Source: a phage. Taken from it: a stretch of DNA of 64,000 bases. The stretch is from sequence record PV730299.1, one strand, 5' to 3'. Shown here piece after piece: positions 17,397 through 46,164 of the stretch (position 1 is the stretch's first letter; every line of letters begins with the position of its first letter). The notes beneath the pieces were generated by a model. It searched no databases and was not told where the DNA came from. It was given only the letters and a program-made list of their open reading frames with translations. Position numbers and translations under genes: made by a program.

Positions 17397-17404
17397 TATA
17401 AATA
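17397..17404 (+). promoter_or_regulatory. T4-type late promoter-like box TATAAATA
   Basis: Exact TATAAATA 34 nt upstream of GTG start of gp54-like gene. Confidence 0.45.
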
Positions 17405-17438
17405 ATAACAGTTATTTTATTTAAGTGGAGTCCTCACC

Positions 17439-18383
17439 GTGGAAGACTATCGCAATTTTATCACACAGATATTACAGCGGGGCTTGTCGCGCAAGAACCG
17501 CTTCAGAGTGACCATCCCTCTACCACCAGGGATCTTTGACTCCAATGCCACTCTGGCTAATGACGGAAAGGCGTACAGAACCAATTCATCTTTTGGTGAC
17601 TTGTTTAAGCAGTCAGCCCGTATTGTAAACGCTTTCTTTGGAGGGACAAACCAGACGTCCCGTTCCCTTCAGATGATGTGTATGGTTGCCTCATTGCCAG
17701 GGGTTGGTATCGACACCACTCCAATGACAAACAACGGTAATCACATCAAGATGCCGAACAACAAGTCCAACGTCGACCTCGACTTGTCATTCTTATTAGC
17801 CAATGACTATTATGAGAAGTCTGTGATGGACAAGTGGAAGAGTCTGATCTTTGATCCACACACCACCAAAATGGGATATTACGAAGACTTCGTGACTGAC
17901 ATATGCATTGAACAGCTTGACACCGAAGATCAAGTGGTCCACCGCGTCTACATCGTCGAGGCTCACCCAATAAATTTCAGTTCTATTGAGCTGGATAAAG
18001 GCGCCACAGACCAGTTCAACCAATACAACATTTCTTTCTCTTACAATAAAGTGCTTTCGGAGACAGAATATGAAACACGCAGCCTTTCCAGCGATTTTCT
18101 TCCTCTCGGCATTGCTGACGCTCTTACCAGTGGTGACTGGGAAACTGCGGCCTCAAAAGCTGGACAGCTTTATCGCAAGGTGAAAGAAGGGAACTTCACA
18201 GGAGAGGCTCTCCTGGCTTACAAACAGCTTGACCAACTTGTAAACAACCTGGCTGGGATAAGCATACAGGACTTCGAGCGCATCTCGGTAGGTATCTCTC
18301 GTGACATCATGGGTAACGATAACCTGACGGCGGCGGAGAAGACAAGCCTGTTGGGAATATTACAAGACGTGATGGGGAAATAA
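17439..18383 (+). CDS. tail tube-family protein (gp19/gp54-like, baseplate tube initiator candidate)
   Basis: 314 aa; N-terminal RKNRFRVTI and CMVASLPGVGIDT...WKS pattern matching T4 gp19/gp48/gp54 tube fold; GTG start with GGAG RBS; TATAAATA box 34 nt upstream. Confidence 0.6.
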   Translation: MEDYRNFITQILQRGLSRKNRFRVTIPLPPGIFDSNATLANDGKAYRTNSSFGDLFKQSARIVNAFFGGTNQTSRSLQMMCMVASLPGVGIDTTPMTNNGNHIKMPNNKSNVDLDLSFLLANDYYEKSVMDKWKSLIFDPHTTKMGYYEDFVTDICIEQLDTEDQVVHRVYIVEAHPINFSSIELDKGATDQFNQYNISFSYNKVLSETEYETRSLSSDFLPLGIADALTSGDWETAASKAGQLYRKVKEGNFTGEALLAYKQLDQLVNNLAGISIQDFERISVGISRDIMGNDNLTAAEKTSLLGILQDVMGK

Positions 18384-18386
18384 AAA

Positions 18387-18404
18387 AGCCATCCGAAGAT
18401 GGCT
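18387..18404. terminator. bidirectional rho-independent terminator between convergent genes
   Basis: Hairpin AGCCATC-cgaa-GATGGCT flanked by AAAAA on one side and TGTTGA on the other. Confidence 0.6.
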
Positions 18405-18410
18405 TGTTGA

Positions 18411-19421
18411 TCAGTTAGACTTGAGATACCGCTCGAATTCGTCAATGGAAGCCGTGTTTCTGGCATTCGGTTGAGCCTGAGCCTGCGACGGCGCGGCCTG
18501 TTGCTGTTTCAGGCTGTCTTGAGCAGTTGGCTGATGTGTAGTCTGGGTGCTAGGAGCATGAGCCATCGTGGCTGCACCACCTTCAACCAGAGGCTGGTCA
18601 TCAGGGATTGCCAAAACTTTGCGCAGGCGCTTTTCCAGGGAGTCGTAGTCTTTGAAGTTAGCCGGATTGAAGAATTCAAACAGGCTGTGCTCGCGAGACC
18701 AGACGTCTTCCATATACGCTTCGTCATCACTCAGCGGGGCAGGGTTCTCCCACACCACCTTACTGAAGTTTGCCACCAGACCTTCCCAGTTCCCAAACTT
18801 CTTCTGCTCGCCAAAGAGCTTCAGGTTCAGGTTGGCACCTTCCCACAGATCGAACGGATCGAATTTAGGGTCGGTTGGGAACTTAGGATTCTGCGCCTGA
18901 TCCAGGATTTTCTTGATGGCGTTACCAAATTCCAGCAGGAAGACCTTGCCGTTGTTTTCCGGTACGTTGACATCTTTGATCACCAGGATGTTAGCGTAGT
19001 ATTTGGTGTCGGGTAGACGTTTCTTCAGGATGTCCTTCAGCTTTTCGTCGTTCGTTTCTTTCTGCTGCGCCCACAGCGGACGGTCATGGTCGCGCACCGG
19101 ATCGTCGTTGCCGAACGTCTGAGGTGAGTTCTCAATGTACCAACCACCAGGTCCCTGGAACTGATGCTTCATGATCATGGCACAAGGGGTGAGGATCTGA
19201 TCTTTATCGATCGTTCCTTCTTCCTGTGCCTTGAGGTCTACCAGCGGGACTGGCAGGAAGCGGATGATGTTCTCGGAGATACCATCTTTGTTCCAAGTCC
19301 ATTTCCAGATGCGAGGATCCTTCTGGAAACCGGACTTCTGGCCTTGCTGTGCAAGACGCGCCTGCATTGCTTCAGTTTGCTGACCACGGGACGCTTTCAG
19401 ACGATCGAATAAATTACCCAT
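18411..19421 (-). CDS. ssDNA-binding protein (T4 gp32-like)
   Basis: 336 aa; shares T4 gp32 blocks IRFLP, YANILV, PENNGKVF, WEGANL; acidic C-terminal tail. Confidence 0.8.
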   Translation of the reverse strand: MGNLFDRLKASRGQQTEAMQARLAQQGQKSGFQKDPRIWKWTWNKDGISENIIRFLPVPLVDLKAQEEGTIDKDQILTPCAMIMKHQFQGPGGWYIENSPQTFGNDDPVRDHDRPLWAQQKETNDEKLKDILKKRLPDTKYYANILVIKDVNVPENNGKVFLLEFGNAIKKILDQAQNPKFPTDPKFDPFDLWEGANLNLKLFGEQKKFGNWEGLVANFSKVVWENPAPLSDDEAYMEDVWSREHSLFEFFNPANFKDYDSLEKRLRKVLAIPDDQPLVEGGAATMAHAPSTQTTHQPTAQDSLKQQQAAPSQAQAQPNARNTASIDEFERYLKSN

Positions 19422-19488
19422 TTCTTAATTTCCTCTGTTTCCGCCCCTCAGGGCTATTCTGTTACATGTATTTTCAGTTTGCTACAAA

Positions 19489-19507
19489 GCGGGGTAATTA
19501 TACCCCG
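19489..19507 (-). terminator. hairpin terminator candidate
   Basis: GCGGGGTA-atta-TACCCCG(C) downstream of gene 19521..19760; weak U tract. Confidence 0.4.
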
Positions 19508-19520
19508 ATCTTACATTGAA

Positions 19521-19760
19521 TTAACCTTTAAGCACTTGATTTGCTGGGTCAATTTCAATAATGTCGAACACGTCCGAAAACGTCTTCTTACCTTCGTCGT
19601 GCGTGTGATACTCAACGACATATGAGCGACCATCAGGGGTAACGTAACGAATACGATCCGTCTGGTCAGCATTCTCGTTCAGGCTACCCACACGCCAGCG
19701 CATTGCGCCAGGAAGAAACTCGGCAGCTTTCATTGCGCTGTAAATTGATTCTTTGCTCAT
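19521..19760 (-). CDS. hypothetical protein
   Basis: 79-aa ORF followed by hairpin terminator. Confidence 0.4.
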   Translation of the reverse strand: MSKESIYSAMKAAEFLPGAMRWRVGSLNENADQTDRIRYVTPDGRSYVVEYHTHDEGKKTFSDVFDIIEIDPANQVLKG

Positions 19761-19767
19761 AATAGAC

Positions 19768-20013
19768 CTACACTAATTTCTTGGACTTTAGCGCGTCTTT
19801 GATCAGGCGCGCATCGGAGCACTCAGCTGTCAGTCGTGACAACAATGGTGCTGTAATCATCTTTTTGACTTTGGTCTCGTCTATGTCGTTCTCTTCACAG
19901 ACAGCTGCCAGAGTCTCAAGGATACTATCCTTGGTTTGGGCGGCGCGTAGTAGGACGATTTCAGAAAATAATTCTGGTGTCATCACAAGCGCTGGCTGTT
20001 TTTCGTCAGACAT
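19768..20013 (-). CDS. hypothetical protein
   Basis: 81-aa ORF, overlaps next gene by 8 nt. Confidence 0.4.
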   Translation of the reverse strand: MSDEKQPALVMTPELFSEIVLLRAAQTKDSILETLAAVCEENDIDETKVKKMITAPLLSRLTAECSDARLIKDALKSKKLV

Positions 20014-20251
20014 CGATTGTGTTCCCCTTACCCGAACCCTTCTTTATCGTACGCAAGACGTCCTTGAAGCCGTCTGGAGCTGATTGTGGTCCCTTCACCC
20101 CAGAGACAATCTTGGGAGCACCCACGACCATTTTAATCTCCCCTCCGCACTCAGTGCAGGGGTTGGATTCAGGCTCATGGCGATCTGCAATAGATTTACG
20201 CAGTATCATCGCGTTACCACAGCCCTTGCATTGATAATCATACAGCGGCAT
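20006..20251 (-). CDS. FmdB-family zinc-ribbon protein
   Basis: 81 aa; MPLYDYQCKGCG...CTECGG zinc ribbon. Confidence 0.5.
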   Translation of the reverse strand: MPLYDYQCKGCGNAMILRKSIADRHEPESNPCTECGGEIKMVVGAPKIVSGVKGPQSAPDGFKDVLRTIKKGSGKGNTIDV

Positions 20252-20552
20252 GGAACACCCCCACGGTTGTCAGTACGAAACGTACCATAATGATAACCAG
20301 CAACATCACTGTAGAAAACACTACACGCTTGATCATTTTATCGCGCATGTGGATGAACTGATATGAGAGGATAGCCTCGGCCTGTTGATCGGCACGAACG
20401 TTCGTGTCACGATGTGGGGATAGTGTGTAGAAGTTGATCTGGTACACATACGCATGAACCAGAGTGAAGAACGACTTCACCCAGACCAAGACAACCACTA
20501 ACAACAAAGCGAACGTCAGGAAGTTCGCCAACAACCAATAATCGACCATCAT
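20238..20552 (-). CDS. membrane protein
   Basis: 104 aa with two hydrophobic helices. Confidence 0.4.
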   Translation of the reverse strand: MMVDYWLLANFLTFALLLVVVLVWVKSFFTLVHAYVYQINFYTLSPHRDTNVRADQQAEAILSYQFIHMRDKMIKRVVFSTVMLLVIIMVRFVLTTVGVFHAAV

Positions 20553-21139
20553 ATACCTCTGTTGAAGTCTGGATTATTCTCAATGAAGTAAGAGCCACAA
20601 GCCATTATCGCAAACGAATCCACGAGGTCATCGATTGGCTTAGGATCCTTAACTTCCAACATATCCATTATACCGCGCATGCTAACATTGAACAGTGACT
20701 CGAAGTGAGCGATCATGGCGTGTTTATCCGCGTTGCCCTTGTCGGTGAACATCTTCTTCACATGGGATGGCGTCACGATCTGGAAGTCAAAATTGTTACG
20801 GCGCAGGGCTTGCTTCAACAGTGAGGTATTCTCTGCGGTCTGGCATATGTTGTTGGAGTTCTTAGAGTTGCCCATAGCATACCCTTCAAGAGTGATCACA
20901 TCCGGCTTCTCAGTCAACAGGACAGCCTCAGCCCATTTACAAATGTTATAGAAGCGTTCTTCTGGGGTCTCCCACTTCGGTTGCTTCATGATAAGGATAT
21001 TCTGACGAATCTGAGTGCAGTACTTCTCCACAGTATAATATGCGTAGAAGCGCAGATGATCAAAATCAAGAGGGTCTTTGTCATCCCAGAAGCACAGGGA
21101 TGGACAGCCATAGGAGTAGTCGATTCCGCAATATTTCAT
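20549..21139 (-). CDS. RuvC-like Holliday junction resolvase (tentative)
   Basis: 196 aa; N-terminal CGIDYSYG, ITLEGY and C-terminal DDLVDSFAIMACGSYF resemble RuvC/RNase-H-fold resolvase catalytic blocks. Confidence 0.5.
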   Translation of the reverse strand: MKYCGIDYSYGCPSLCFWDDKDPLDFDHLRFYAYYTVEKYCTQIRQNILIMKQPKWETPEERFYNICKWAEAVLLTEKPDVITLEGYAMGNSKNSNNICQTAENTSLLKQALRRNNFDFQIVTPSHVKKMFTDKGNADKHAMIAHFESLFNVSMRGIMDMLEVKDPKPIDDLVDSFAIMACGSYFIENNPDFNRGI

Positions 21140-21140
21140 G

Positions 21141-21183
21141 TAAATAGCCCATAACGAAGTTTCATTGGTGTATGGGCTATTTA
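21141..21183 (-). promoter_or_regulatory. 13-bp stem-loop immediately upstream of RuvC-like start codon
   Basis: TAAATAGCCCATA-17 nt loop-TATGGGCTATTTA ending 1-2 nt before ATG; no obvious SD. Confidence 0.35.
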
Positions 21184-21190
21184 CGCCGGG

Positions 21191-21682
21191 TTAACGGGTG
21201 ATGATTTTGCTATCAGGCAGGATCAGACCAGGGTGGTCCAGGTTCTTCTGCATCTGTTGGATACTCTGCAGGATCACGGTAGTGTCGATGTGGCGTTTCA
21301 CTTTGCGCGCTTCATCACCGTAGGAGATCTGCCCCTGAGGATCGATGTAGTGGGCTGTCACAACCTGCAGATCATAACCACACTTGATCAGGTACTTGGC
21401 AATGTTGCTAACTTCGAGAGACAGGGACTCACCGTCCACACCGATGTTGGCTGAGTAGACGATTACGCCATTTTCTACTGCTTTTGGTTCAAACAAAACC
21501 ATACCAGCGATCGTCTGGATCAAAGGAACTCCCTCGGTATCGAAAGCCACCTGATCGAACGCACCGATGAACTCATCCGGCACTTTACCTTCGGCATCAG
21601 AAACTGTGTGTTTCATAAGGTCCAGGACGTGTTGTTGTACTTCCTCAATCGGAGCACGTTCAACGGGTTTTTCGTTTTGCAT
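21191..21682 (-). CDS. hypothetical protein
   Basis: Start moved to MQNEK (GGAG RBS, 8-nt spacing). Confidence 0.4.
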   Translation of the reverse strand: MQNEKPVERAPIEEVQQHVLDLMKHTVSDAEGKVPDEFIGAFDQVAFDTEGVPLIQTIAGMVLFEPKAVENGVIVYSANIGVDGESLSLEVSNIAKYLIKCGYDLQVVTAHYIDPQGQISYGDEARKVKRHIDTTVILQSIQQMQKNLDHPGLILPDSKIITR

Positions 21683-22190
21683 TACTTTTCTCCAGTTCAT
21701 AATCGCGCTCCACAACGTATTGGTAGACACGCATCTTAATATAGTCAGCACTGCCTGCTGAAGACAGTACCATCCATCCACTACTAAGGGCATTCATCTT
21801 ATATTGACCAACACCCTCTTGAAAATAACTTTTAATCTGTTCCAGCTTTCGCCCACGATGATAATACGAGATGAGTTCGCCGATGACAATACAATCTGGA
21901 TAATGCTTTTCCAATGTATTGATGTTGCGGTGAACATATACGGGTAGAACTTCTTCATCGTCGATAGGGCTGTAGTATGGGTCTACGATGACCACTTGTA
22001 GACCATAACGCAGCAGGTCTTTGACACCCAGCCGACAGAACTTATAATCTTCGTGTTTCATTGCCACATGGAGGATATTCTCTTTCTTGGCATAATCGGT
22101 CAGGAAGATAAAGAAGTCTGTGTTGGGATCGGGATATTGTATAGACAGTTCTTTGCCTATTTCACTAAAACAAAATCCGCGCATTTTCAT
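21660..22190 (-). CDS. hypothetical protein
   Basis: 176-aa ORF; no motif recognised. Confidence 0.4.
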   Translation of the reverse strand: MKMRGFCFSEIGKELSIQYPDPNTDFFIFLTDYAKKENILHVAMKHEDYKFCRLGVKDLLRYGLQVVIVDPYYSPIDDEEVLPVYVHRNINTLEKHYPDCIVIGELISYYHRGRKLEQIKSYFQEGVGQYKMNALSSGWMVLSSAGSADYIKMRVYQYVVERDYELEKSNAKRKTR

Positions 22191-22197
22191 TCCTCGT

Positions 22198-22205
22198 TAT
22201 AATTA
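22198..22205 (+). promoter_or_regulatory. late promoter-like box, variant TATAATTA (or sigma70 -10)
   Basis: 28 nt upstream of ATG at 22234. Confidence 0.25.
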
Positions 22206-22233
22206 CTCTTACAATATACCGTGGAGATACATT

Positions 22234-23040
22234 ATGAATTTACCATCATTGCCCAGAACAGAAAAGACATATAAAAGCGACTTTTGGCCTACTGTGATCA
22301 AATATCGCGCCTTTACTGCGGGGCAACAAACTTTATTACTTCAGGTGTCAGATCCGCAAACGCCGATTGAAGAACGCGCGGCCATGATGGAGAGTCTCTT
22401 TAGCGAGTGTGTAAATGCAGGCGCACCTTTCAGTAAACTGCCAATCGGCGTTGTTGAGGAAGTGTTCATCCGCATGCGCATGATCTCCATCGGTGAATTG
22501 ATGAAGATTCGTTATAAGTGCAATAATCAGATTGAAGAAACGATCGATCTGGGAGATGGTCAAGAAAAGCACCAGATGGTTCCCTGTGAGCAGGAACTGA
22601 CTCTACCTATCCCGTTGAACAATGTCAAATGCATTGCTCAGGACGGCTTCCGGGAAACATTTGACCTGCCAGGTGGATATCACCTCAAGATGCGCCAACC
22701 TTCCTTCTCGGACGCTACGGCACTGTCTGATGCTGCAAGTGTTGAGATGATGCTGGCCACCTTTATCGACTGTCTGTACGATGATGACGGTCAGGTGTGG
22801 AAGGTTGAGAATCCTGAAGAAATCGGAATCACTCCAGAAGAGGCTACTGAGCGCCGCCGTGTGAAAGAAGCGTTTGTTGAGTGGGTGAAGGATAACATCG
22901 AATCAGATGTTATTGACAGCATTACGAAGAACTTCTTCCACAAAATACCGCGCATCCACTACAAGAGTTCGATCAAGTGTCCGAAATGTGGTAAGGAGCA
23001 CAAAATCGAATTCAATAGTATTAATGAAATTTTCATTTAA
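22234..23040 (+). CDS. hypothetical protein with C-terminal zinc ribbon (possible baseplate-associated)
   Basis: Start moved to MNLPSL (GGAG RBS); C-terminal CPKCGKEH; first gene of plus-strand block ending with gp5-like and gp25-like genes. Confidence 0.45.
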   Translation: MNLPSLPRTEKTYKSDFWPTVIKYRAFTAGQQTLLLQVSDPQTPIEERAAMMESLFSECVNAGAPFSKLPIGVVEEVFIRMRMISIGELMKIRYKCNNQIEETIDLGDGQEKHQMVPCEQELTLPIPLNNVKCIAQDGFRETFDLPGGYHLKMRQPSFSDATALSDAASVEMMLATFIDCLYDDDGQVWKVENPEEIGITPEEATERRRVKEAFVEWVKDNIESDVIDSITKNFFHKIPRIHYKSSIKCPKCGKEHKIEFNSINEIFI

Positions 23041-23189
23041 TGTTTGAAACTGATTTATTATCCTACTTCGTGATGTGTGATGAATTGAAGTTACACGGCT
23101 ATAGCATATTTGAAATCAACGAGTCGATGCCATGGCATCTTGACTTGTTAACCGAAGCCCTCAAGGTCAGGTTGTCTAAGAAACAGTAA
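23040..23189 (+). CDS. small ORF (49 aa)
   Basis: ATG overlapping stop of upstream gene (TAATG); ends just before a strong terminator. Confidence 0.25.
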   Translation: MFETDLLSYFVMCDELKLHGYSIFEINESMPWHLDLLTEALKVRLSKKQ

Positions 23190-23213
23190 TCCCGCTTCGG
23201 CGGGATTTTTATT
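23188..23213 (+). terminator. rho-independent terminator
   Basis: ATCCCGC-ttcg-GCGGGAT followed by TTTTTATT, after plus-strand genes ending at 23040/23189. Confidence 0.65.
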
Positions 23214-23510
23214 GGCTTAACTGCAAAATAGGTTAACACGCGTTCTCTTTACCTAAAATTGTTATAATGGGCTTGTTCCCGAGTCATTTGTTGGTGTTTG
23301 TCTGTTTTGAATCAGATTGTCAGTAAAATACCATTTTTCAAGGAGTGTTCTGGGGTGTACAGTTATTGCCTCGCCCTTATGCCTCCATGGCATTGGAATG
23401 GTGCTGCCCGCATAGGGCGGTTTGATGAGCGAAGCGAATAGGATCGAATAAAACAAATAAAATGAACGGAAGCAGAGCTTCCTATAGTATATAAGGCAAA
23501 ATCAGCTGCG

Positions 23511-23518
23511 CATAAATA
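23511..23518 (+). promoter_or_regulatory. late promoter-like box, variant CATAAATA
   Basis: 34 nt upstream of gp5-like ATG, same spacing as the exact boxes. Confidence 0.35.
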
Positions 23519-23552
23519 CCTTCAAATCCTTGTTTGACAACCGGAACTCAAT

Positions 23553-25163
23553 ATGTTAGACAATATGAGATGGTTTTACGGCACCGTTGAAGATGTCAAC
23601 GATCCAGACCAAAACGGGCGCGTCGCCGTCCGCATATATGGCGTACACACCGACGATCCCGTCCTCCTGCCTACAGACAAACTCCCATGGGCGAAGGTAC
23701 TGATGCCTGCTTCTAACGCCTCCTCTGCTGGTTTAGGTTGGTCTCCAACGGGTATCATTCCTGGTACTGAGGTTATGGGGTTCGCCCTTGACGAAGCATA
23801 CCAGAATTTACGCATCACCTGGACTTGGACTGGTTCAAGCCCTACTGATGGCGCCGACACAAACCCGCTGGCTCTCGGGCAGGTCGTTCAATCTGTAGAA
23901 CGTCAGGCGTACAACGCTGTCACTGACGTTCCTGTGAAACAAGAAGACGAACCACAACCAGATCCACAACCACCTGTTGGTGGGTATGATCCAGAGAAGT
24001 GGATGACAATCGCTCGTGGCGAATTGGGTATCAAGGAGTACGCCGGAAAGTTCAATAACAACCCGCGCATTATAGAATATCACAAGACAACCTCCCTTGG
24101 TGCTTCTGAAGATGAAGTGTCGTGGTGTGCGGCGTTCGTGGGTTGGGTTATGATACAGGCTGGATACACGTCTACACGCTCCGCTCTTGCCCGATCTTAC
24201 CTTACATGGGGCACTGCACTGTCAGCACCACAATATGGCGCTATCGTAGTCTTCCGGCGTGGTAACAACCCTACATTTGGACACGTAGCGTTTGTGCAGA
24301 AGTTCGATGCAAACTATGTCTGGTGTATTGGTGGCAACCAATCCGATTCAGTGAAGGTCAGTCGTTTCAGACGTTCTTCGGTCTTGGGATATCGTTGGCC
24401 TGGTCCTGCTAACACAGCCACAGCCGCGCCTGCGCAGCAGAATGGTAAATGGTCAGAACCTATCCCAGATCGTACTCCAAAGGAACAACCGACTCCGGCT
24501 CCTACTGGGCGAGTACAGGATATTGACAACACTGGAGAAACCATGGTTCCGGCTGCGGGTGGCTCTAAATACCCGTACAATAACGTCATGGTGTCCCGAG
24601 CTGGGCATATTATGGAAGTGGATGACACCCCTGGTGGTGAACGTCTTCATTGGATGCATAAGTCTGGGTCTTACAAGCAAATGTTGCCGGATGGTGATGT
24701 GGTCAACAAGTCCGTCAAAGACCACTATGACCTGACGATGTTCAACAAGCGTTATTATGTCGGCGGGGACCACAACCTGACGGTCAAAGGAACTGAAGTT
24801 CAGCGCAAGACAGGTGAGGTCTATCATTTGCATTCCAACAATTACTCCAACGTGGTTGCGGGCACAGCGCTGATGAAATTCAGTGACCTAGCCGAGTTTC
24901 AAGCGCAGAATATTCTGCGCATTATCTGCGAGACTCTGGAGGTCGGTGGGACATTGAAGGTTCCTAAGATTCTAACGACTGAGATCATCGCTGACAAACT
25001 GACTGTCGCTCAGACGATCAATGGTAACATCATATATGCCGAAGGTGCTGGTCGCGCTTCTTCTCTGTCAGGTGCAACCCCTGCATCCCCTACGGGTCCG
25101 GGTGAGATTGACATCAAGGCAGAATTAAAAGACAATGGTGGTAATTTCGGCACCAAAGAGTAA
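23553..25163 (+). CDS. baseplate central spike/hub protein with CHAP peptidase domain (gp5-like)
   Basis: 536 aa; N-terminal OB-like YGTVEDVNDPDQNGRVAVRIYGVHTD; central Cys/His amidase pair (SWCAAFVGW ... FGHVAFV) typical of CHAP/NlpC-P60; C-terminal beta-helix-like region. Confidence 0.7.
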   Translation: MLDNMRWFYGTVEDVNDPDQNGRVAVRIYGVHTDDPVLLPTDKLPWAKVLMPASNASSAGLGWSPTGIIPGTEVMGFALDEAYQNLRITWTWTGSSPTDGADTNPLALGQVVQSVERQAYNAVTDVPVKQEDEPQPDPQPPVGGYDPEKWMTIARGELGIKEYAGKFNNNPRIIEYHKTTSLGASEDEVSWCAAFVGWVMIQAGYTSTRSALARSYLTWGTALSAPQYGAIVVFRRGNNPTFGHVAFVQKFDANYVWCIGGNQSDSVKVSRFRRSSVLGYRWPGPANTATAAPAQQNGKWSEPIPDRTPKEQPTPAPTGRVQDIDNTGETMVPAAGGSKYPYNNVMVSRAGHIMEVDDTPGGERLHWMHKSGSYKQMLPDGDVVNKSVKDHYDLTMFNKRYYVGGDHNLTVKGTEVQRKTGEVYHLHSNNYSNVVAGTALMKFSDLAEFQAQNILRIICETLEVGGTLKVPKILTTEIIADKLTVAQTINGNIIYAEGAGRASSLSGATPASPTGPGEIDIKAELKDNGGNFGTKE

Positions 25164-25236
25164 GTTGGTATAAGTTTAGTGGCAGAGGGACAGCACGTCT
25201 CTCTGCTCCTTATAGGCATCCTGAGAGGATCGCGAA

Positions 25237-25617
25237 ATGAAAGAGTATAAAGATGTCGATCTGAAGTTCGGCATGCATCCGGTGACCAAAGACGTCACTA
25301 TGAAATCAGGTGTGTATGCTGTCTTACAATCCGTGCGGAATATCGTCATGTCTTCAGTCGGGGACTGGCCCACTTATCCTGGGATCGGCGCGGGGCTTTA
25401 TGGGCTGTTGGGTGAAAACACGACACCGACTATCCAGGTAGATGTGAAGAACAAAGTAGAGGACGCTATCGCCCTGTATGAACCCAGAGCAGAGGTAGAA
25501 GAAGTCACGGTGAGTCTGTCAGAGGATTACCATTCTCTGGGCGTGACCATCACATTCTATGTGGTCAACAATCCAGATCCAATAACAGACACCGTGTGGT
25601 TGAAAAGGACGAATTAG
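25237..25617 (+). CDS. baseplate wedge protein (gp25/GPW family)
   Basis: 126 aa; typical gp25-like size and pattern. Confidence 0.75.
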   Translation: MKEYKDVDLKFGMHPVTKDVTMKSGVYAVLQSVRNIVMSSVGDWPTYPGIGAGLYGLLGENTTPTIQVDVKNKVEDAIALYEPRAEVEEVTVSLSEDYHSLGVTITFYVVNNPDPITDTVWLKRTN

Positions 25618-25964
25618 AATTTCGTCCTGAATGCCGGAGCCACGACTAACATGAAGTGGCTCAATAACCTGAACATCTCTTTACCGTTGAATTGGTAGAG
25701 GATAATCATCGGCCTGACGTCAACCACTGATCCCTCCAGCTTCTTGTTCAACACAAATCTGGAACCCACACTGACCTGTCCGCGCTCTTCGTCTCCTGGT
25801 TTGTCGTAGACCACGCAACTGGTGGCATAACCGATTTGAGATCCATCCTCAGACCGCAAGGGCAGCATATGCCCTTCAGACATCAGATGATGCAGGTTCT
25901 GGTATAAACCTTTGTCTGGTATGGGGACTGCCAGCTGCATTCTCAACTCTTTGTAATCTTGCAT
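25614..25964 (-). CDS. hypothetical protein
   Basis: 116-aa ORF convergent with gp25-like gene. Confidence 0.4.
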   Translation of the reverse strand: MQDYKELRMQLAVPIPDKGLYQNLHHLMSEGHMLPLRSEDGSQIGYATSCVVYDKPGDEERGQVSVGSRFVLNKKLEGSVVDVRPMIILYQFNGKEMFRLLSHFMLVVAPAFRTKF

Positions 25965-25969
25965 GAGGA

Positions 25970-26431
25970 CTACTCCGCCAGGGTGATCACAACCATATTT
26001 AAGACTGTGTCGATAGCTCGGCCTGTTTCCTCTTCATGGAGGGTTTCGGCTCGGAGGTGCACGTCGGTGATGAAATTGTCGATGTGCATTGAAGTCAGAT
26101 ACGGGCGGTGTTGACTGACCGGGCGGTTGACCAGAACATAATTGCGCAATGTGTTGAAGTCCTGATGAGAGCACCCCGTTGTATCGATACGAAGGAAGCG
26201 TTCGTTGTGACTTGTCTTCAACTCAGTCACCTTGCCAAGGTAGACCAGAGGTCCATTGCGACCGATACGGAACATGACATCAACAACAGACTTGAAGATT
26301 TCGCGTTCAATCAGTGCGGTGGGTGACCAGCAGATCTCTTCTTTGTCGTCGGCGTACAGGGTGTCGATCACCAGAGGGAGTTGAATGTAACCGAAGTTGT
26401 GCAGTGGGTTGGTGAGTACTTTGTTTGTCAT
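25970..26431 (-). CDS. hypothetical protein
   Basis: 153-aa ORF; start carries conserved AGGAACTATATC-ATG initiation motif. Confidence 0.4.
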   Translation of the reverse strand: MTNKVLTNPLHNFGYIQLPLVIDTLYADDKEEICWSPTALIEREIFKSVVDVMFRIGRNGPLVYLGKVTELKTSHNERFLRIDTTGCSHQDFNTLRNYVLVNRPVSQHRPYLTSMHIDNFITDVHLRAETLHEEETGRAIDTVLNMVVITLAE

Positions 26432-26499
26432 GATATAGTTCCTGCTTTTAATTTGTGGCGAATGCCAATGAATTACTGGGAAGTATAAGCGCAGGGATT

Positions 26500-26530
26500 A
26501 TAGAAGTAAAGCCCCTCAATGAGGGGCTTC
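26500..26530 (-). terminator. rho-independent terminator
   Basis: 9-bp stem AAGCCCCTC/GAGGGGCTT followed on minus strand by TTACTTCTA; downstream of NrdH-like gene. Confidence 0.55.
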
Positions 26531-26536
26531 GGCTTG

Positions 26537-26761
26537 TCAGCGTTTAAGGCTGGCGGCGAGTCCATTAACGTCGGTCACGGTCTGGTCAGCGAGGACGATT
26601 ACAGGCATCGACACGCGCGGCTTACCCGTCAACTGCTGAAGTTCTTCCAGCCGGTAATCTTTGTCCAGCTTGAGGATCTTGTGTTCCAGCCCTTTCATTT
26701 TGCACAGATTTTCGGCTGTTACACACTGAGCGCAACCTTGTTTGGAATAGATCGTAATCAT
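26537..26761 (-). CDS. glutaredoxin/NrdH-like redoxin
   Basis: 74 aa; redox motif CAQC near N-terminus; adjacent to nrdB/nrdA. Confidence 0.65.
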   Translation of the reverse strand: MITIYSKQGCAQCVTAENLCKMKGLEHKILKLDKDYRLEELQQLTGKPRVSMPVIVLADQTVTDVNGLAASLKR

Positions 26762-26770
26762 TTCTCACCT

Positions 26771-27874
26771 TTAAGCGAATTTGAGGCCATCGGATACCGA
26801 ACCAGTCAGTACACCCATCAGATAATCAGGAGCTTCCGCTTCCTGCAACGCGTACTGCATTGCCTTATTATCTAGCCAGTCATTAATCCATGGGACTGGG
26901 TTCTCCTTGCGAGGTTCACCGGGATATGGATGCCCGATAGCGCCCATCCGGTGGGTTGCCAGCCAGTCTACCATCTGATGAAGGATCTTGGCGTTCAGCC
27001 CCAGGATGGAACCGTCTTTGAATAGGTAGTTCGCCCACTCCTTCTCCTGATGGACCACGTCCAAGAACATCTGGGTCATCTCACCACGCAGTTCCTCACG
27101 GATGATTGCAAAGTCGGGGTCCATACCAGGCAGGCGGTTTAGCAGCGTCTGGGTCAGGATCAGGTGATCCTGCTCATCACGGGCGATCTGTCGAATGATT
27201 TTGGCATTGCCTTCCATCTTCTTCTGAAACTGTGTGAATGCCCAAGAGCATGCAAAGGACACGTAGAAGCGGATGCCTTCCAGTGTGTTGGCAGCAAACA
27301 GAGCACGCCAGAATGCGCGTTTGGCATTCATCAGATCTTCTCGGGTGAAGATGCGTCCGGCCATACGCATGCCACTGTACTGTACCATGTCATCGTAGTA
27401 CACACTGATCTGGTGAGCACAGTCCACGATCTCCACAACATCCAGTACGTGGTCAAACACGATACCTGGATCGTTCACAGTATTGCGCAAAATGTGGGTG
27501 TACGATAAAGAGTGAATGGCTTCCTGGCGCGTCCATTCAAGGACAGCAAACTGCATTTCAGGGGTAGACGCCCATGGACCAAACGCCTCGAACGGAGCCG
27601 CACCCTGGATAGAGTCCAGCATGGTCTGGCGCTTCAGGTTGCTGAAGTAGACATGTTTCTCTGCTTCGTTCAGAGTAGCGAAGTCTGCCTTGTCCTTGGT
27701 GATGTCCACCTCTTCAGGACGCCAGAACTGACTGAGACCTTTCTCATACCACTTCTGTACGAATGGCCAGGCCACGACATCGTAACGCTGGATGCTCACT
27801 GGGTCACCGAAGAACGGTAGACCAGTGTTGTCCGAGCTTGGGTCGAATACGGAGAATTGTTTCTGTTCGCTCAT
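26771..27874 (-). CDS. nrdB: ribonucleotide reductase class Ia beta subunit
   Basis: 367 aa with ferritin-like diiron/tyrosyl radical fold pattern; adjacent to nrdA. Confidence 0.9.
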   Translation of the reverse strand: MSEQKQFSVFDPSSDNTGLPFFGDPVSIQRYDVVAWPFVQKWYEKGLSQFWRPEEVDITKDKADFATLNEAEKHVYFSNLKRQTMLDSIQGAAPFEAFGPWASTPEMQFAVLEWTRQEAIHSLSYTHILRNTVNDPGIVFDHVLDVVEIVDCAHQISVYYDDMVQYSGMRMAGRIFTREDLMNAKRAFWRALFAANTLEGIRFYVSFACSWAFTQFQKKMEGNAKIIRQIARDEQDHLILTQTLLNRLPGMDPDFAIIREELRGEMTQMFLDVVHQEKEWANYLFKDGSILGLNAKILHQMVDWLATHRMGAIGHPYPGEPRKENPVPWINDWLDNKAMQYALQEAEAPDYLMGVLTGSVSDGLKFA

Positions 27875-27880
27875 GTTTCT

Positions 27881-27912
27881 TTCCTGATTAATAAGGGGTG
27901 ATCTCTCACCCC
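27881..27912 (-). terminator. intercistronic hairpin/terminator between nrdA and nrdB
   Basis: GGGGTGA-tctc-TCACCCC followed on minus strand by TTATTAATCAGG, then nrdB RBS. Confidence 0.5.
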
Positions 27913-27944
27913 TGATGATATAACGGTAGTAGGTTTAGACCAAT

Positions 27945-32080: not shown

Positions 32081-32088
32081 TATTTAAA
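32081..32088 (-). promoter_or_regulatory. late promoter-like box, variant TTTAAATA
   Basis: About 30 nt upstream of endolysin ATG. Confidence 0.3.
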
Positions 32089-34777: not shown

Positions 34778-34871
34778 GATTTGTTTCCTTAGAAAAAGAA
34801 ATCCCCCTGTATTTAGGGGGATCCAGTTACAGACCAAGTTCTTTCGCCGTGGCGTCGTCTAGTGCAACCTT

Positions 34872-35441
34872 CTAGACAGGCTTAACACCGAGGAACTTGG
34901 CAATGTCAGCAGCCAGGTTTTTACCCTTGCTGATGTCGTGTTCTTTACCGCCGACAGTAACGATCACATACGGGTCATCTTCACCACCGAAGTTCACGGT
35001 GATCGCCTTGCCGATGCCAGGGATGCCAGAGTATTCGAACTCAGTGCGACCACTCTTGCGAGACTTGCCAGCACCCAGTGCTTTACCGATCATCTTGTCC
35101 ATGTTCGCCAGTTCCTGAGCATAGGATTCGGTCACTTGGCCTTTGTTGGCAGACTTGCCAAAGAAGAATTCGAAGCCGTCATGGACAGCAACGACTTCCT
35201 GACCTTGGGAGATACCGTGAGTCTGGTCTGGGGTCAGCTTCACCTTGATGGTGTTGCCGTTGGTTAACTCCAGGTTGTAGACATCCGCCTGATTGTCAGG
35301 GGTGATCTGGGTCACGGTAGCGCCGGAACACCACTGGGTGCCGTCAGCTTGCTTGGTGATGGATACGGTCTTACCTTGGACACCAGCGTGGGTCTGAGGT
35401 TTAGCGGCTTGTTCTTTAAAATATTCGATAAAAGGTTTCAT
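34872..35441 (-). CDS. hypothetical protein, probable late/structural gene
   Basis: 189 aa; GAGGAG RBS; TATAAATA box about 25 nt upstream of ATG. Confidence 0.45.
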   Translation of the reverse strand: MKPFIEYFKEQAAKPQTHAGVQGKTVSITKQADGTQWCSGATVTQITPDNQADVYNLELTNGNTIKVKLTPDQTHGISQGQEVVAVHDGFEFFFGKSANKGQVTESYAQELANMDKMIGKALGAGKSRKSGRTEFEYSGIPGIGKAITVNFGGEDDPYVIVTVGGKEHDISKGKNLAADIAKFLGVKPV

Positions 35442-35466: not shown

Positions 35467-35474
35467 TATTTATA
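35467..35474 (-). promoter_or_regulatory. T4-type late promoter-like box TATAAATA
   Basis: Exact TATAAATA on minus strand about 25 nt upstream of ATG at 35441, immediately after terminator hairpin of the 986-aa gene. Confidence 0.45.
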
Positions 35475-38459: not shown

Positions 38460-38534
38460 TTTATATCTCCTGACTGAATTAATGGCGGTTTCTTCTAATT
38501 AGCGAAACCAAAAGGGAGCGTCAGCCCCCTTATC

Positions 38535-39275: not shown

Positions 39276-39914
39276 TTACGGCGTCGGATTCGCAACCGGA
39301 ATGTGGGATCGAATACCTGCGATGATATCCTTCAGCTGTGGTTTCCAGCCATTTACCAAACGGGGGAGAGCGATAGCGCCAGGCTGGACCAAAATGATGT
39401 CGCTGCCTGTGATATTGTGCTGAGGGAACTGGGCAAGGTACTGCTCCATGGTGACACCCTCATCAATCAGAACCGCACCGACGTCAGACGATGCGTAGGT
39501 TGCACCCAGACCGTCAACGCCCCACGCCAAAATACCCCAGTCAGGGATGTTGGCTTCAGATGTGATGGTGAATCCAAACACGGTGTTCAGTGAGGTAAAG
39601 GAATAGACATCGTGGGTGAGGTCATACACCAGATACCCCTTGGCCAGCATATCGGCAAAGATCGCGTCCGTATCGCCTGCAGCCGGAGTCGGTACAGTAA
39701 ACAACAACTCGCCCTCAGGAGGGGCAGGATACGTACCGAGGGCATAGAGGCACCATGCGTCAATACACTTCTTGATAAATGCCTCCGGTGCGACATAATC
39801 AGCAAGGCGAACCGTGCCTGAGTACTCGGATACGATGATGCCTTCCTTCGCACCCTGTAGAGCAATGAAGACCAAGATATGTTCATATCCGGCCTGAGAT
39901 GGAGTGATGTTCAT
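39276..39914 (-). CDS. hypothetical protein
   Basis: Start moved to MNITPS (TAATG overlap with upstream gene); terminator downstream. Confidence 0.45.
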   Translation of the reverse strand: MNITPSQAGYEHILVFIALQGAKEGIIVSEYSGTVRLADYVAPEAFIKKCIDAWCLYALGTYPAPPEGELLFTVPTPAAGDTDAIFADMLAKGYLVYDLTHDVYSFTSLNTVFGFTITSEANIPDWGILAWGVDGLGATYASSDVGAVLIDEGVTMEQYLAQFPQHNITGSDIILVQPGAIALPRLVNGWKPQLKDIIAGIRSHIPVANPTP

Positions 39915-40528
39915 TATCTTGTCCTCTTCAGTTTCTCTATCGTGTGCTTGTTCATGGCGATCACCCGAGGATCTACCTCGGAGATGGTCCGGCCTTTGAA
40001 GGACACACATTTCTGAAGATATTTAGCTTTCTTCACGACGTCAGCGGCATAAGCGTTCGATGCAGGATTACGGGCAAAGCCAGCATTGTAAGAGGAGAGG
40101 GATTTGCGGATATTCTGATTGTGATAGGTCAGCCAGAACTGCATCTCATCGAGGGCGGCTTGCGCGGCATATTCTTGGTCGGTCAGCAACTTTATGGCGA
40201 CATTGGCATAGCACTTGCGATTCTTACAACCTTCGCGATCACCAACTGTCTTCACCTTGTTCTGAAAGGCTCCCATGTTGGCCGCCTTGAGGCCGTATCG
40301 CATTGACACTACATCTTCACCAGCGCGGCTCTCTCGCCAAGATATGGCGGCCAGAGTGTAGCCAAGATCTTGTGTCTTGCCTACGTGATAGGCGGTTGCC
40401 ATCGTATTAAGTTGTTGCTCGGAGAAATTATAATCACATTGGGTGGTACTTTGGGAAGCGTGCACATTCCCGCTGGCAATGGTAAAGGTCACGGACAAGG
40501 CCATGGCCTTCAACGTTGTCATCGTCAT
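39914..40528 (-). CDS. secreted lytic transglycosylase-like (SLT domain) protein
   Basis: 204 aa; N-terminal signal peptide (MTMTTLKAMALSVTFTIASGNVHA); SLT-like catalytic context LAAISWRESRAG and NAGFARNPASNAY. Confidence 0.55.
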   Translation of the reverse strand: MTMTTLKAMALSVTFTIASGNVHASQSTTQCDYNFSEQQLNTMATAYHVGKTQDLGYTLAAISWRESRAGEDVVSMRYGLKAANMGAFQNKVKTVGDREGCKNRKCYANVAIKLLTDQEYAAQAALDEMQFWLTYHNQNIRKSLSSYNAGFARNPASNAYAADVVKKAKYLQKCVSFKGRTISEVDPRVIAMNKHTIEKLKRTR

Positions 40529-40582
40529 GATGGCGTTCCTTATGTTTTGTCGACTTGCAGCTCGCTTGAGCCTCCTGACAGG

Positions 40583-40620
40583 GGTTAAAAGATAAAGGGC
40601 ACGTGGTATTTAGTGCCCTT
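40583..40620 (-). terminator. rho-independent terminator
   Basis: 8-bp stem AAGGGCAC/GTGCCCTT with 10-nt loop, followed on minus strand by TTATCTTTTAACC. Confidence 0.5.
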
Positions 40621-40625
40621 CAGCC

Positions 40626-43729: not shown

Positions 43730-44837
43730 CCAGTTTGTTCAGGCGTTGTTGGGCAGCATTATAGAAGTGCTCTGCTAGTTTACAGACATTGTCGGGGCGC
43801 TGAATGTTGTTCCCTGCGCGGATATCCTTCTTCAGGACTTCCACCGCATCGGTCGCCACCATCTCTTCGGTGACCTCAACCTTCTCGGCAGCAACAGTAA
43901 TCGTCCGGTCGATGAAGTTGTAGTCAATACACTTGCATCGCTTCATGGCATCACAGAACTTTTCATAATGCTTAGCATTGTCGCGGTTCTGTACAATAAC
44001 CTTAACGATTTGCCCTTCAATACCCAAGCCTGTGTTCAACCATTCCGGGTCGATCCAATTACCTTCTTCATCAGAGGACAACTTGGTGTAATCATATTCC
44101 ACATAGCGGAACAGCGTCTGGTGCTCGGCGTTCGGGATAAAGATCTCACCACCACGCATGTCGTCCACATAGAAGCCACGGTTAGTGCCGTCTTTGTAGT
44201 CTTCCCAGTTCAGGTGATACGGAGTCCCAATATATTGAATGTTACCTTCCATCGAACGGGTATGGAAATGCCCCGTGTCGACCCTGGTAAACTTGGAAAG
44301 CAGAGCAACGTCGATCTGACCGTGATCACAAGTAGAAGACTGGTACATTTTGAACCCCGCCAGCTCCAGATGCGCAAAACAGTACTCGGCGTCTGTATCT
44401 TGTATCGCTTTAATAGACGCATCATAGTTCTCCTTGTTGATCCAAGGCAGCAGCAGAGTCTTGACACCCTCGATCATCACTTCGGTCGGTTCGCTGTAAT
44501 AGCAGTACACATCCGGGTCGAGTTCGTTCAGGTAGGATGGCCAGTTGATGCGGTTGGACTCTTCCAGGGTGATATCATGGTTACCCACGATGCCATTCCA
44601 CTTGATACCAGCCGCTTTCAACGCAGGGGTGAGTTCATCCTTCAGCCAGTCTTTGTCACGACCGTACATGAATTTGCGGACATCAAACGTATCACCGAAC
44701 TGCCAGACCTCTTTGATATCAGAGTCGACAAGTTCAGGAATGAAATAATTGATGAGATAGTTCTTGATGAAGTCGCGAACGTATCGAGAACCATTACGGC
44801 TCCCGATATGCAGATCGCCAATTTTAGCAATCGCCAT
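43722..44837 (-). CDS. SbcD/Mre11-like nuclease (T4 gp47-like)
   Basis: 371 aa; calcineurin-like phosphoesterase motifs GDLHIG and GNHD; 8-nt overlap with SbcC-like gene. Confidence 0.85.
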   Translation of the reverse strand: MAIAKIGDLHIGSRNGSRYVRDFIKNYLINYFIPELVDSDIKEVWQFGDTFDVRKFMYGRDKDWLKDELTPALKAAGIKWNGIVGNHDITLEESNRINWPSYLNELDPDVYCYYSEPTEVMIEGVKTLLLPWINKENYDASIKAIQDTDAEYCFAHLELAGFKMYQSSTCDHGQIDVALLSKFTRVDTGHFHTRSMEGNIQYIGTPYHLNWEDYKDGTNRGFYVDDMRGGEIFIPNAEHQTLFRYVEYDYTKLSSDEEGNWIDPEWLNTGLGIEGQIVKVIVQNRDNAKHYEKFCDAMKRCKCIDYNFIDRTITVAAEKVEVTEEMVATDAVEVLKKDIRAGNNIQRPDNVCKLAEHFYNAAQQRLNKLDA

Positions 44838-45615
44838 TATTCTGTTTCTCCCGTTCTTCTAATCTTTGTTTGAGGGCTTCCCAATCTGGTTCCATCGCAC
44901 AGATATTATCTTCCAGATTGAATTGGGTTTTGCCGAAGTCCTGATCTGAATTGTCTTCGGCCTGCGCTGTTACCGTATTCTTAGCCTGCGCCATGTATTG
45001 AAGTATGCCTTTCGCAATCTTTTTATTCGATTCTGCGAGACGAGCTGCCTCCACCTTCTCTCGTTCCTTCTGCCTTTGAGCGTCCTTTTTGTTCTCAAAG
45101 TTGCCGATACGTTCACGGAAGTCCATGCCAATTCCTGTAGCATCAACAAAGATCTCTTGTTGGAAGTCGGGATCGTCTGCCAGGCCTGCGAACCCACCCG
45201 CCTCTTCAAATGAGCGCAATTTGATGTACGTATGTTCTTCTTCGATATTCAGTTTACGAGCAAATGAGCGATCCGCACACATGGTCACCCAAGAAAAGAA
45301 GTTGATCTTCCCTTTCTTTCCAATATGGTCGACGTCAAAGGTGTGGAGGTAACGCAGGATGTTGACGATTGCTTCAGAGACCATGTCTTCACGGAAGGGA
45401 TAATCGCGATAGTTGTAGCGGGTACTCATCTTGGTGATGATGCGCTGGACCTGCAGAGCAACATAGTTGGGGATCTTTGGAAGCCTGGTGCCCTCAGCAA
45501 GTGCTTTCTTGCGAGCAGGGATCCAATCACGAAGGATACTAATGACACGCTCGTTGTCTTCGTCCGTGAAATATTTGACGACATTCTCCCCTCTGTCCAC
45601 GAAGTTCATTCCCAT
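44824..45615 (-). CDS. late-transcription sigma factor candidate (T4 gp55-like)
   Basis: 263 aa; N-terminal region resembles T4 gp55 as recalled; lies upstream of the SbcD/SbcC-like pair as gene 55 lies near 47/46 in T4; TATAAATA boxes present in window. Confidence 0.45.
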   Translation of the reverse strand: MGMNFVDRGENVVKYFTDEDNERVISILRDWIPARKKALAEGTRLPKIPNYVALQVQRIITKMSTRYNYRDYPFREDMVSEAIVNILRYLHTFDVDHIGKKGKINFFSWVTMCADRSFARKLNIEEEHTYIKLRSFEEAGGFAGLADDPDFQQEIFVDATGIGMDFRERIGNFENKKDAQRQKEREKVEAARLAESNKKIAKGILQYMAQAKNTVTAQAEDNSDQDFGKTQFNLEDNICAMEPDWEALKQRLEEREKQNNGDC

Positions 45616-45626
45616 TATGATAGCCC

Positions 45627-46154
45627 TCAGATACCGATAAATTCATCAAAAGATCCAACAACCTTCTTCACCGAGATATTGTCATTCTCAATCAGGAAGT
45701 TGCTGTCGTTTTTGGCTGCTGTAGCCCAGTCATCGGCAAGTTCGTTGCCTTCGTGTCCCGCATGACCCTTAACCCATTTTAGTTCAACATCACAAATTGA
45801 ACAAACGAGATCATAGATTCTGAACAGATCTTTGATGAGTTCAACGTTCTTTTCTGGGAACCCCTGATACTCCCACTTCGTTCGCCATTCGGTGACACTC
45901 TTGATGGCATATTGGCTGTCAGACCAAATTGTTGCCTTTGGTATTCTGCGCTCACCCTTTCCTGAGAATGCCCACAGTAGCTTCAATGCGTTGGTCACAC
46001 CCAACAACTCGGCGATGTTGTTAGTGGACGGGGGAGGTAGATGACCGAAGAACACCTTCCATTGCATACCCGTTATTGGCCTGATGACAAATGCCCAGCC
46101 TGCGGCCTGGTTGGTCTTCGGGTTAGAACCCCCGTCAGAATAAATTTCTATCAT
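45627..46154 (-). CDS. ribonuclease H (RNase HI-like)
   Basis: Start at MIEIYSDGG; RNase H catalytic blocks YSDGGS, NNIAELLGV, IWSDSQYAI, GHAGHEGNELAD. Confidence 0.85.
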   Translation of the reverse strand: MIEIYSDGGSNPKTNQAAGWAFVIRPITGMQWKVFFGHLPPPSTNNIAELLGVTNALKLLWAFSGKGERRIPKATIWSDSQYAIKSVTEWRTKWEYQGFPEKNVELIKDLFRIYDLVCSICDVELKWVKGHAGHEGNELADDWATAAKNDSNFLIENDNISVKKVVGSFDEFIGI

Positions 46155-46156
46155 GA

Positions 46157-46164
46157 TATAAATA
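46157..46164 (+). promoter_or_regulatory. T4-type late promoter-like box TATAAATA
   Basis: Exact TATAAATA 35 nt upstream of ATG at 46200; overlaps RNase H start region on opposite strand. Confidence 0.45.

Follow-up and report, generated by a model that had tools for sequence, protein, structure and literature searches.

Putative T4-Type Late Promoters with a TAAATA Core in an AV101-Like Phage of the Ackermannviridae

Introduction

Late transcription in phage T4 involves the sigma factor gp55, the co-activator gp33, the sliding clamp gp45 and the element TATAAATA, located at -13 to -6. The stretch of phage DNA considered here (64,000 nucleotides [nt] of sequence record PV730299.1, hereafter "the window") carries copies and near-copies of this element at similar distances before several genes, and the question it raises is whether these boxes are late promoters of the T4 type. 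An initial annotation, made from the sequence alone, had answered in the affirmative; it listed six boxes and a gp55-like open reading frame (ORF), and it marked two unknown proteins, of 189 and 255 amino acids (aa), as probable virion or lysis proteins. The analysis reported below supports the proposal of T4-style late transcription, as the window encodes homologs of both gp55 and gp33 and its boxes are positioned, conserved and biased towards late genes. We consider it highly probable that the phage runs its late genes in the T4 manner, through the gp55 homolog acting at TAAATA boxes. Selection acts on the 6-mer TAAATA rather than on the full T4 8-mer.

Enrichment and Position of the TAAATA Core

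A megablast search with window positions 17000-37000 as the query returned 44 phage records with a query coverage of 80% or more. The best matches, 97-98% identical, are phages of Escherichia, Salmonella and Enterobacter, e.g., Escherichia phage AV101 (OQ973471); Shigella phage Ag3 is 92% identical. Judging by these matches, the window is part of an AV101-like genome of the Ackermannviridae (ViI-like), subfamily Aglimvirinae. The AV101 annotation was moved onto the window by protein matching, which yielded 86 genes occupying 93% of the sequence, mostly minus-strand genes of replication and nucleotide metabolism with a few plus-strand baseplate genes. Motif counts for AV101 were taken over 151 kb.

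An unbiased scan of 7-mers, comparing AV101 upstream regions with the whole genome, placed CTAAATA, ACTAAAT and TAAATAC at the top, followed by ATAAATA. The core common to the top-ranked 7-mers is TAAATA, and this 6-mer carries the signal. Its position was assessed with an upstream band of 23-42 nt before a same-strand start codon, a band into which 1.3% of the window positions fall. Nine of the 16 TAAATA copies on both strands of the window lie upstream of a same-strand start, at gaps of 25-38 nt (binomial p ~1e-13). When only intergenic copies are counted, 8 of 11 fall in the band as compared to 9.1% of intergenic positions (p ~6e-7), which removes the argument from AT-richness. Genome-wide, the bias is borne out in AV101, where 28 of 58 copies are located upstream of starts, all with gaps of 23-42 nt (p ~5e-27); in the AV101 structural region outside the window, and hence independently of it, 8 of 25 copies are so positioned. 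The other fourteen permutations of A4T2 are upstream-positioned in only 2-17% of their AV101 copies, as opposed to 48-56% for TAAATA (AV101 and window, respectively).

The T4 8-mer itself contributes less. Exact TATAAATA occurs three times in the window (Table 1), always in intergenic DNA; shuffling gives an expectation of 0.67 copies, and 3 of 100 shuffles reach three. The spacing initially described for these copies was confirmed: they precede GTG 17439, ATG 35441 (minus strand) and ATG 46200 by 34, 25 and 35 nt, respectively. The three one-mismatch variants named alongside them, CATAAATA, TTTAAATA and TATAATTA, are also present at their sites; as a class, however, one-mismatch 8-mers are not enriched, with 19 counted in the window against 20.8 expected. 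This blind count was dropped as uninformative, and the individual variants are supported by position and conservation instead. All six boxes of the initial list are there, but four clear ones had been missed (gp2, RuvC-like, mobD.6-like and RegB-like), as had two weaker candidates at 25996 and 38496.

Nor does TATAAATA, adopted at the outset as the consensus, describe the family, whose consensus is N-TAAATA-yC with C favored before the core. Among the 28 AV101 boxes, the base before the core is C in 13, A in 7, T in 6 and G in 2; the core is followed mostly by C or T and then by C. Six bases past the core, at the predicted +1 and the position from which late transcripts of T4 begin, an A is found in 17 of the 28 (p ~7e-4 against an A content of 30%). 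CTAAATA occurs four times in the window, two of the copies being upstream of genes in hairpin loops, and in AV101 13 of 18 copies are upstream of starts. No full copy of the published family motif CTAAATAcCcc stands in promoter position in the window; the window boxes share with it the TAAATA core and the yC tail, and are mostly of the A/T-TAAATA flavor. Training a weight matrix, with CTAAATAC as the seed, on the structural module beyond the window yielded ACTAAATAyC, and the matrix was abandoned in favor of the core 6-mer.

The boxes favor late genes. When the comparison is restricted to genes preceded by a spacer of 25 nt or more, a box precedes 13 of 21 annotated late genes and 2 of 17 replication-type genes (Fisher p=0.0025). 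Outside the window, a strong box, ACTAAATACCCC, is located before uvsW (AV101 112085-112092, minus strand), and the DNA polymerase gene has a TAAATA 39 nt ahead of it; late promoters may also serve some genes of replication or repair. A fourth exact TATAAATA of AV101, at 13976-13983 and likewise outside the window, lies 28 nt before the gene of a 55-aa putative membrane protein (14012-14179), which is a candidate late gene for lysis (e.g., a holin or spanin gene).

Table 1. Coordinates of the predicted late boxes and of the associated genes in the window.
Feature	Sequence	Position	Strand	Remarks
Late box	TATAAATA	17397..17404	+	34 nt before gp54-like baseplate tube gene (17439-18383)
Late box	CTTAAATA	17418..17425	-	32 nt before gp2 DNA-end-protector gene (16681-17385)
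gp33-like late transcription co-activator gene, 81 aa		19768..20013	-	PF16805 Trans_coact E=8.5e-18; phrog_254 E=2.8e-20
Late box	CGTAAATA	21178..21185	-	38 nt before RuvC-like resolvase gene (20549-21139)
Variant box	TATAATTA	22198..22205	+	28 nt before gp26-like baseplate hub gene (22234-23040)
Late box	CATAAATA	23511..23518	+	34 nt before gp5-like hub/lysozyme gene (23553-25163)
Weak candidate box	CTTAAATA	25996..26003	-	31 nt before hypothetical gene (25614-25964); intragenic, in the upstream coding sequence
Late box	TTTAAATA	32081..32088	-	30 nt before endolysin gene (31256-32050)
Late box	in CTAAATAC	34810..34817	-	32 nt before mobD.6-like gene (34424-34777); hairpin loop
189-aa protein gene, probable virion protein		34872..35441	-	LIMEstone1 ORF80 orthologue
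Late box	TATAAATA	35467..35474	-	25 nt before 189-aa gene
Candidate variant box	GCTAATTA	38496..38503	-	36 nt before 986-aa structural gene (35499-38459)
Box	in CTAAATACC	40607..40614	-	78 nt before long start (40528) of RegB-like ORF; hairpin loop
gp55-like late sigma factor gene, 263 aa		44824..45615	-	PHROG and profile match
Late box	TATAAATA	46157..46164	+	35 nt before 255-aa gene
255-aa protein gene, virion protein		46200..46967	+	LIMEstone1 ORF93 orthologue

Conservation of the Boxes

Orthologous sites carry boxes in Limestonevirus, Kuttervirus, Taipeivirus, Miltonvirus, Nezavisimistyvirus and a family member infecting Vibrio, and they persist across genera even where the flanks have diverged. 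The gp54 and gp2 boxes, which are divergent and share one 53-nt spacer, are both kept: for the former, CBA120 (Kuttervirus) has TATAAATA and LIMEstone1 has TATAAGTA, and the latter is present in these same two phages. At the gp26 site, where the window has a variant, LIMEstone1 and CBA120 both have exact TATAAATA. The gp5 box, CATAAATA, survives in CBA120 despite diverged flanks, and TAAATACC at the endolysin gene is invariant in five genera. At the mobD.6-like site, the loop with CTAAATAC is identical in LIMEstone1 and CBA120, i.e., across subfamilies. The site before the 189-aa gene carries TATAAATA in LIMEstone1 and, after the same hairpin, CTAAATAC (also given as GGCTAAATACA) in CBA120. 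The box before the 255-aa gene, which lies in the 45-nt spacer between this gene and the divergent RNase H gene, is kept in six phages (LIMEstone1, Det7, a Klebsiella phage, a Serratia phage, Erwinia phage Bue1 and the Vibrio phage), as TATAAGTA in Det7 and as TCTAAATA, amid unrelated flanks, in the Vibrio phage. These differences between relatives at the same site indicate that A-TAAATA and C-TAAATA replace each other.

The two weaker candidates fare differently. The one at 25996 is kept in LIMEstone1 and reads TCAATA in CBA120; it is rated weak because it is intragenic and is not kept in CBA120. The CTAATTA variant of the candidate at 38496 also precedes gp20 and gp19 in AV101. A related TAATTA variant (ccTTAATTAg) is located at 31189-31194 on the minus strand, 35 nt before phoH, a gene classed as early, and may be a further late-type box.

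Homologs of gp55 and gp33

The gp55-like ORF pointed out in the initial annotation exists, and its product is a true gp55 homolog: it falls in phrog_234 (E=6.3e-52), the "late sigma transcription factor" family in which T4 gp55 is also found (E=2.9e-69). The proposed comparison with gp55 gave the same answer, since a profile of 16 homologs had T4 gp55 as its sole match in the PDB (7d7c_F, from 7D7C/7D7D; E=2.4e-7), over T4 gp55 residues 10-161. The product is annotated as gp55 in both AV101 and LIMEstone1. The relationship is detected solely by PHROG and profile searches; a pairwise BLASTP against T4 gp55 gave no similarity (E=96), and a Pfam search with the protein gave no match. The lone hit of a single-sequence phmmer search against the PDB, FtsZ, was discarded as spurious. 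The second component, a gp33 homolog, is encoded in the window as well (Table 1).

In the gp55 homolog, a sigma-region-2-like core is followed by a conserved KKIxKGILQYL segment and then by an acidic tail of ~50 aa that is variable; the protein is longer than its T4 counterpart (263 aa vs. 185 aa). The KKIxKG-ILQYL segment is C-terminal in the shortest homologs, and is followed by ~50 variable residues in the window protein; it may be the clamp-binding motif. In T4, gp55 flips the -12, -9 and -8 bases into pockets formed by N13, L54, R57, F86, H95, Y97 and T99, with Y97 stacking on the -12 adenine (PMC7892883). Aligned to these residues, N13 (N21 in the window protein), R57 (R66), F86 (F93) and T99 (T111) are identical and invariant in the family, and three positions are substituted (Y97 by W109, H95 by F107 and L54 by M63). 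This alignment suggests that the fold is probably kept and that specificity at -12 may differ from that of T4; the Y97W substitution would fit the loss of a fixed A at -12 in the Ackermannviridae.

Hairpins at the Boxes

At the endolysin gene (domains PF11860 and PF01471), whose start in relatives is ATG 32050, TTG 32068 merely giving the longest ORF, AAATACCUCUAC pairs with GUGGAGGUAUUU in a minus-strand hairpin at 32055-32085. The box makes up the 5' arm, and the Shine-Dalgarno sequence GGAGG is located in the 3' arm. The read-through leader folds with a minimum free energy of -19.2 kcal/mol, and the late leader with one of -4.6. The predicted late start (+1, at 32075) is within the stem, and a transcript starting at 32075 cannot form the hairpin. 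Three of the thirteen pairs show compensatory changes across five genera, in a small sample of five sequences. The RuvC-like gene displays the same design, with a hairpin at 21140-21184 (minus strand; -23.8 kcal/mol) in which the box is the 5' arm and the 3' arm ends at the ATG. Here too the predicted +1 (box end + 6) is within the stem and the late leader loses the hairpin (-3.3 kcal/mol); hairpin and box are kept in four genera, with one compensatory pair among only four sequences. Limestonevirus, Kuttervirus, Taipeivirus and Miltonvirus share both stems. Over 21139-21186, the RuvC-like hairpin is palindromic and has TAAATA on both strands (21141, plus; 21178, minus); the plus-strand copy, which has no downstream gene, is probably a mere complement of the stem.

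Three further boxes are associated with GC-rich hairpins. Before the mobD.6-like gene (34799-34824) and the RegB-like gene (40593-40622), both on the minus strand, a GC hairpin is followed by a T run and the box is in the loop, the former being the top terminator-like match; before the 189-aa gene, the box comes directly after a GC hairpin at 35476-35489. Each of the five boxes that stand in intergenic DNA behind co-oriented early genes on the minus strand is thus linked to a hairpin. Leader folding revealed no hairpin at the gp2 box, which is the first of its block, nor at the four plus-strand boxes. In the RegB-like region (39914-40595), AV101 uses a short start (window 40402) and a tiny plus-strand ORF (40479-40595), and LIMEstone1 has a long 204-aa ORF equivalent to window 39914-40528, which fits the upstream hairpin and box better.

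This arrangement has a known parallel. In T4, the late promoters of e (lysozyme), 49 (resolvase), soc and I-TevI lie in hairpins that mask the ribosome site, so that early read-through transcripts are masked and late transcripts begin inside the stem (PMC3014915). The endolysin and resolvase genes of the window are functional counterparts of e and 49, and have the same layout of box in the 5' arm and Shine-Dalgarno sequence or AUG in the 3' arm. By their family names, a PF11860 muramidase and a RuvC-like enzyme, the window proteins are presumably not of the T4 lysozyme and endonuclease VII types. With enzymes of different family types, the hairpin arrangement at the two genes looks convergent, or else carried over together with the promoters.

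Products of the Genes behind the Boxes

The suggestion that the 189-aa and 255-aa unknowns are virion proteins is borne out for both by their orthologues. Mass spectrometry of LIMEstone1 virions identified 39 proteins, including ORF80 and ORF93 (PMC3296691); the former, 93% identical to the 189-aa protein, was found with 2 peptides; for the latter, which shares 92% identity with the 255-aa protein, 8 peptides gave 41% coverage. ORF78 (mobD.6-like), ORF81, ORF82 and ORF85, encoded in the same neighborhood, are virion proteins as well (PMC3296691). The Ag3 and Sajous1 proteome papers gave no ready evidence on the two proteins. A further structural gene is variable within the family: the minus-strand ORF of 986 aa (35499-38459) has 906 aa in AV101, and in LIMEstone1 two virion proteins, ORF81 and ORF82, take its place.

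Discussion

The results are consistent with the following scheme. The gp55 homolog would replace the host sigma factor on an Escherichia coli-type RNA polymerase, assisted by the gp33 homolog and, as we infer, by the phage sliding clamp. The resulting holoenzyme would contact a single -10-type element with no -35 partner, composed of the TAAATA core (T4 positions -11 to -6) and usually a yC tail, and would start at an A six bases past the core, giving leaders of ~18-37 nt. About eleven boxes in the window would drive, late in infection, gp54, gp26, gp5, gp2, the endolysin, the RuvC-like resolvase and a virion cluster including the 189-aa and 255-aa proteins. Boxes on the strand shared with early genes would be built into hairpins, where a terminator-like or ribosome-site-burying stem would silence early read-through; late transcripts, starting inside the stem, would escape it. 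Similarly to T4, the boxes are single -10-type elements a few tens of bases before late starts, an A is found at the predicted start, and late genes are interspersed with early genes, in many cases on the other strand; unlike T4, a C>A>T preference replaces the flipped A at -12, and a yC tail is added.

One alternative is that TAAATA acts mainly at the RNA level, as part of a terminator or of a hairpin masking the ribosome site, or as a processing site. Although five minus-strand boxes lie within or beside conserved hairpins, and the LIMEstone1 and Menlow records annotate terminators at some box sites, the plus-strand boxes (gp54, gp26, gp5 and the 255-aa gene) and most boxes of the structural module have none, and the same motif and spacing recur with hairpins and without them. 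Conservation of a terminator loop would, moreover, be unusual, whereas CTAAATAC does not differ between subfamilies. The promoter and hairpin roles can coexist, as T4 genes e and 49 demonstrate, and we regard a purely RNA-level function as very unlikely.

It is still more doubtful that TAAATA is a promoter read by another phage factor, a sigma or an activator, with the gp55 homolog reading a different element. The residues that contact the -9 and -8 adenines are kept, the TAAATA core is common to the T4 late element and is part of the top enriched motif upstream of structural genes, and no second sigma-like gene is labeled in the AV101 annotation tables, although no dedicated search for one was made. 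In favor of such a factor are the difference from T4 at -12, the two substituted pocket residues and the CBA120 paper of 2011, whose authors stated that no late recognition sequence had been identified for ViI-like phages.

Least credible of all are chance AT-rich strings or host sigma-70 -10 hexamers, used early or never. In their favor are the one-mismatch count at expectation and the other A4T2 6-mers also found upstream of genes; against them, TAAATA stands in the sense orientation in the 23-42 nt band, even among intergenic copies, with a preference for late genes. Scans over positions 17-50 kb revealed no sigma-70 partner hexamer at the other late boxes and a single overlapping match, a weak 10/12 one (TTGCCA-16-AATAAT) at the gp54 box, and sigma-70 was rejected as a general explanation; the -35-like hexamer of this match falls where the divergent gp2 gene begins, and CBA120 does not keep it.

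T4-style late transcription through the gp55 homolog is thus the preferred reading, and several observations weigh against it. The strict T4 consensus is absent from most boxes, the full TATAAATA being found in 3 of ~11 window boxes and 4 of 28 AV101 boxes. The T4 -12 base is unconserved in the AV101 boxes, and recognition, as far as sequence can tell, cannot be identical to that in T4. The putative clamp-binding motif of the gp55 homolog is internal, not C-terminal as in T4, with the variable tail behind it, and the window lacks the gp45 clamp gene; AV101 annotates it at 109174-109842, a few kb beyond the window end. Two AV101 boxes precede the replication-type genes for DNA polymerase and uvsW. 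At a threshold of 9 bits, the ACTAAATAyC matrix did not pick up the window boxes, and most of its matches in the window were intragenic; there may be two promoter flavors of unequal strength. Two boxes sit in terminator loops, and part of their conservation could be owed to the hairpin. Lastly, we found no transcript 5' ends, timing or gp55 dependence for the Ackermannviridae in the searchable literature.

The late boxes are real, but as a finding they restate what in silico annotation of close relatives had already predicted. The GenBank record of Dickeya phage LIMEstone1 (HE600015, 2012) names gp55 and gp33 and carries 33 putative late promoters, with late -10 signals before gp2, gp26, gp5, endolysin, ruvC, ORF78, ORF80, ORF86 and ORF93. 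The marked sites are orthologous to nearly all window boxes, including the RegB-like place; no late promoter is marked before gp54 in the stretches of the record examined. These are predictions from sequence similarity, made without statistics or start-site mapping. The genus description of "Viunalikevirus" gave the motif CTAAATAcCcc, as cited in PMC7283392, and the C>A>T preference before the AV101 cores matches it. For Ag3, a genus-level relative, the same approach as that of the initial annotation, a search for TATAAATA with one mismatch, returned 17 hits, with gp2, gp5 and gp6 noted as targets of late transcription (Anany et al., 2011; PMC3121705). In comparison, the one-mismatch 8-mer performs no better than chance in the window, and it is the 6-mer core with its spacing that carries the signal. 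Added here are statistical support, a corrected consensus, extra sites and the hairpins of the T4 e/49 kind at the endolysin and resolvase genes.

A more specific proposal can be put forward only tentatively, and we lean slightly against it: Ackermannviridae gp55 would read the 6-bp TAAATA plus yC, with recognition at -12 relaxed or changed through Y97W and H95F, and the promoters would be systematically built into hairpins for genes of lysis, resolution and some virion proteins that are to be expressed only late. If true, this would parallel T4 e and 49 with unrelated enzymes. The refined description of the boxes provides targets for a first transcript-mapping study in the family (the 6-mer core, the degenerate -12, an A at +1 and the hairpin-embedded boxes before the endolysin and resolvase genes), as well as a natural variant with which DNA reading by gp55-type sigmas can be studied.

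For annotation, TAAATA at 23-42 nt before a start is a reliable flag of late genes (virion, lysis, packaging) in the Ackermannviridae, phages widely proposed for biocontrol and therapy. In the window, it correctly marks the two unknowns with virion-confirmed orthologues. The finding leaves current beliefs about these phages unchanged.

Other Features of the Window

Between the primase and mobD.6-like genes (34182-34423), ~240 nt remain that contain a partial protein match. AV101 has two genes in this interval (~0.9 kb, 74107-75012) and LIMEstone1 a homing endonuclease, and the window looks to have either a deletion or a missing mobile-element insertion. On the minus strand at 57044-59559, adjacent genes for nicotinamide phosphoribosyltransferase and ribose-phosphate pyrophosphokinase look like a phage-carried NAD salvage pair. 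A dUTPase gene, a second 189-aa gene (dNMP kinase in LIMEstone1) and a thymidylate-synthase-like gene, whose counterpart in the phiMAM1 record is likened to deoxyuridylate hydroxymethyltransferase, are clustered at 11649-13812 (minus strand); this cluster would fit the modified thymidine reported for the Ackermannviridae.

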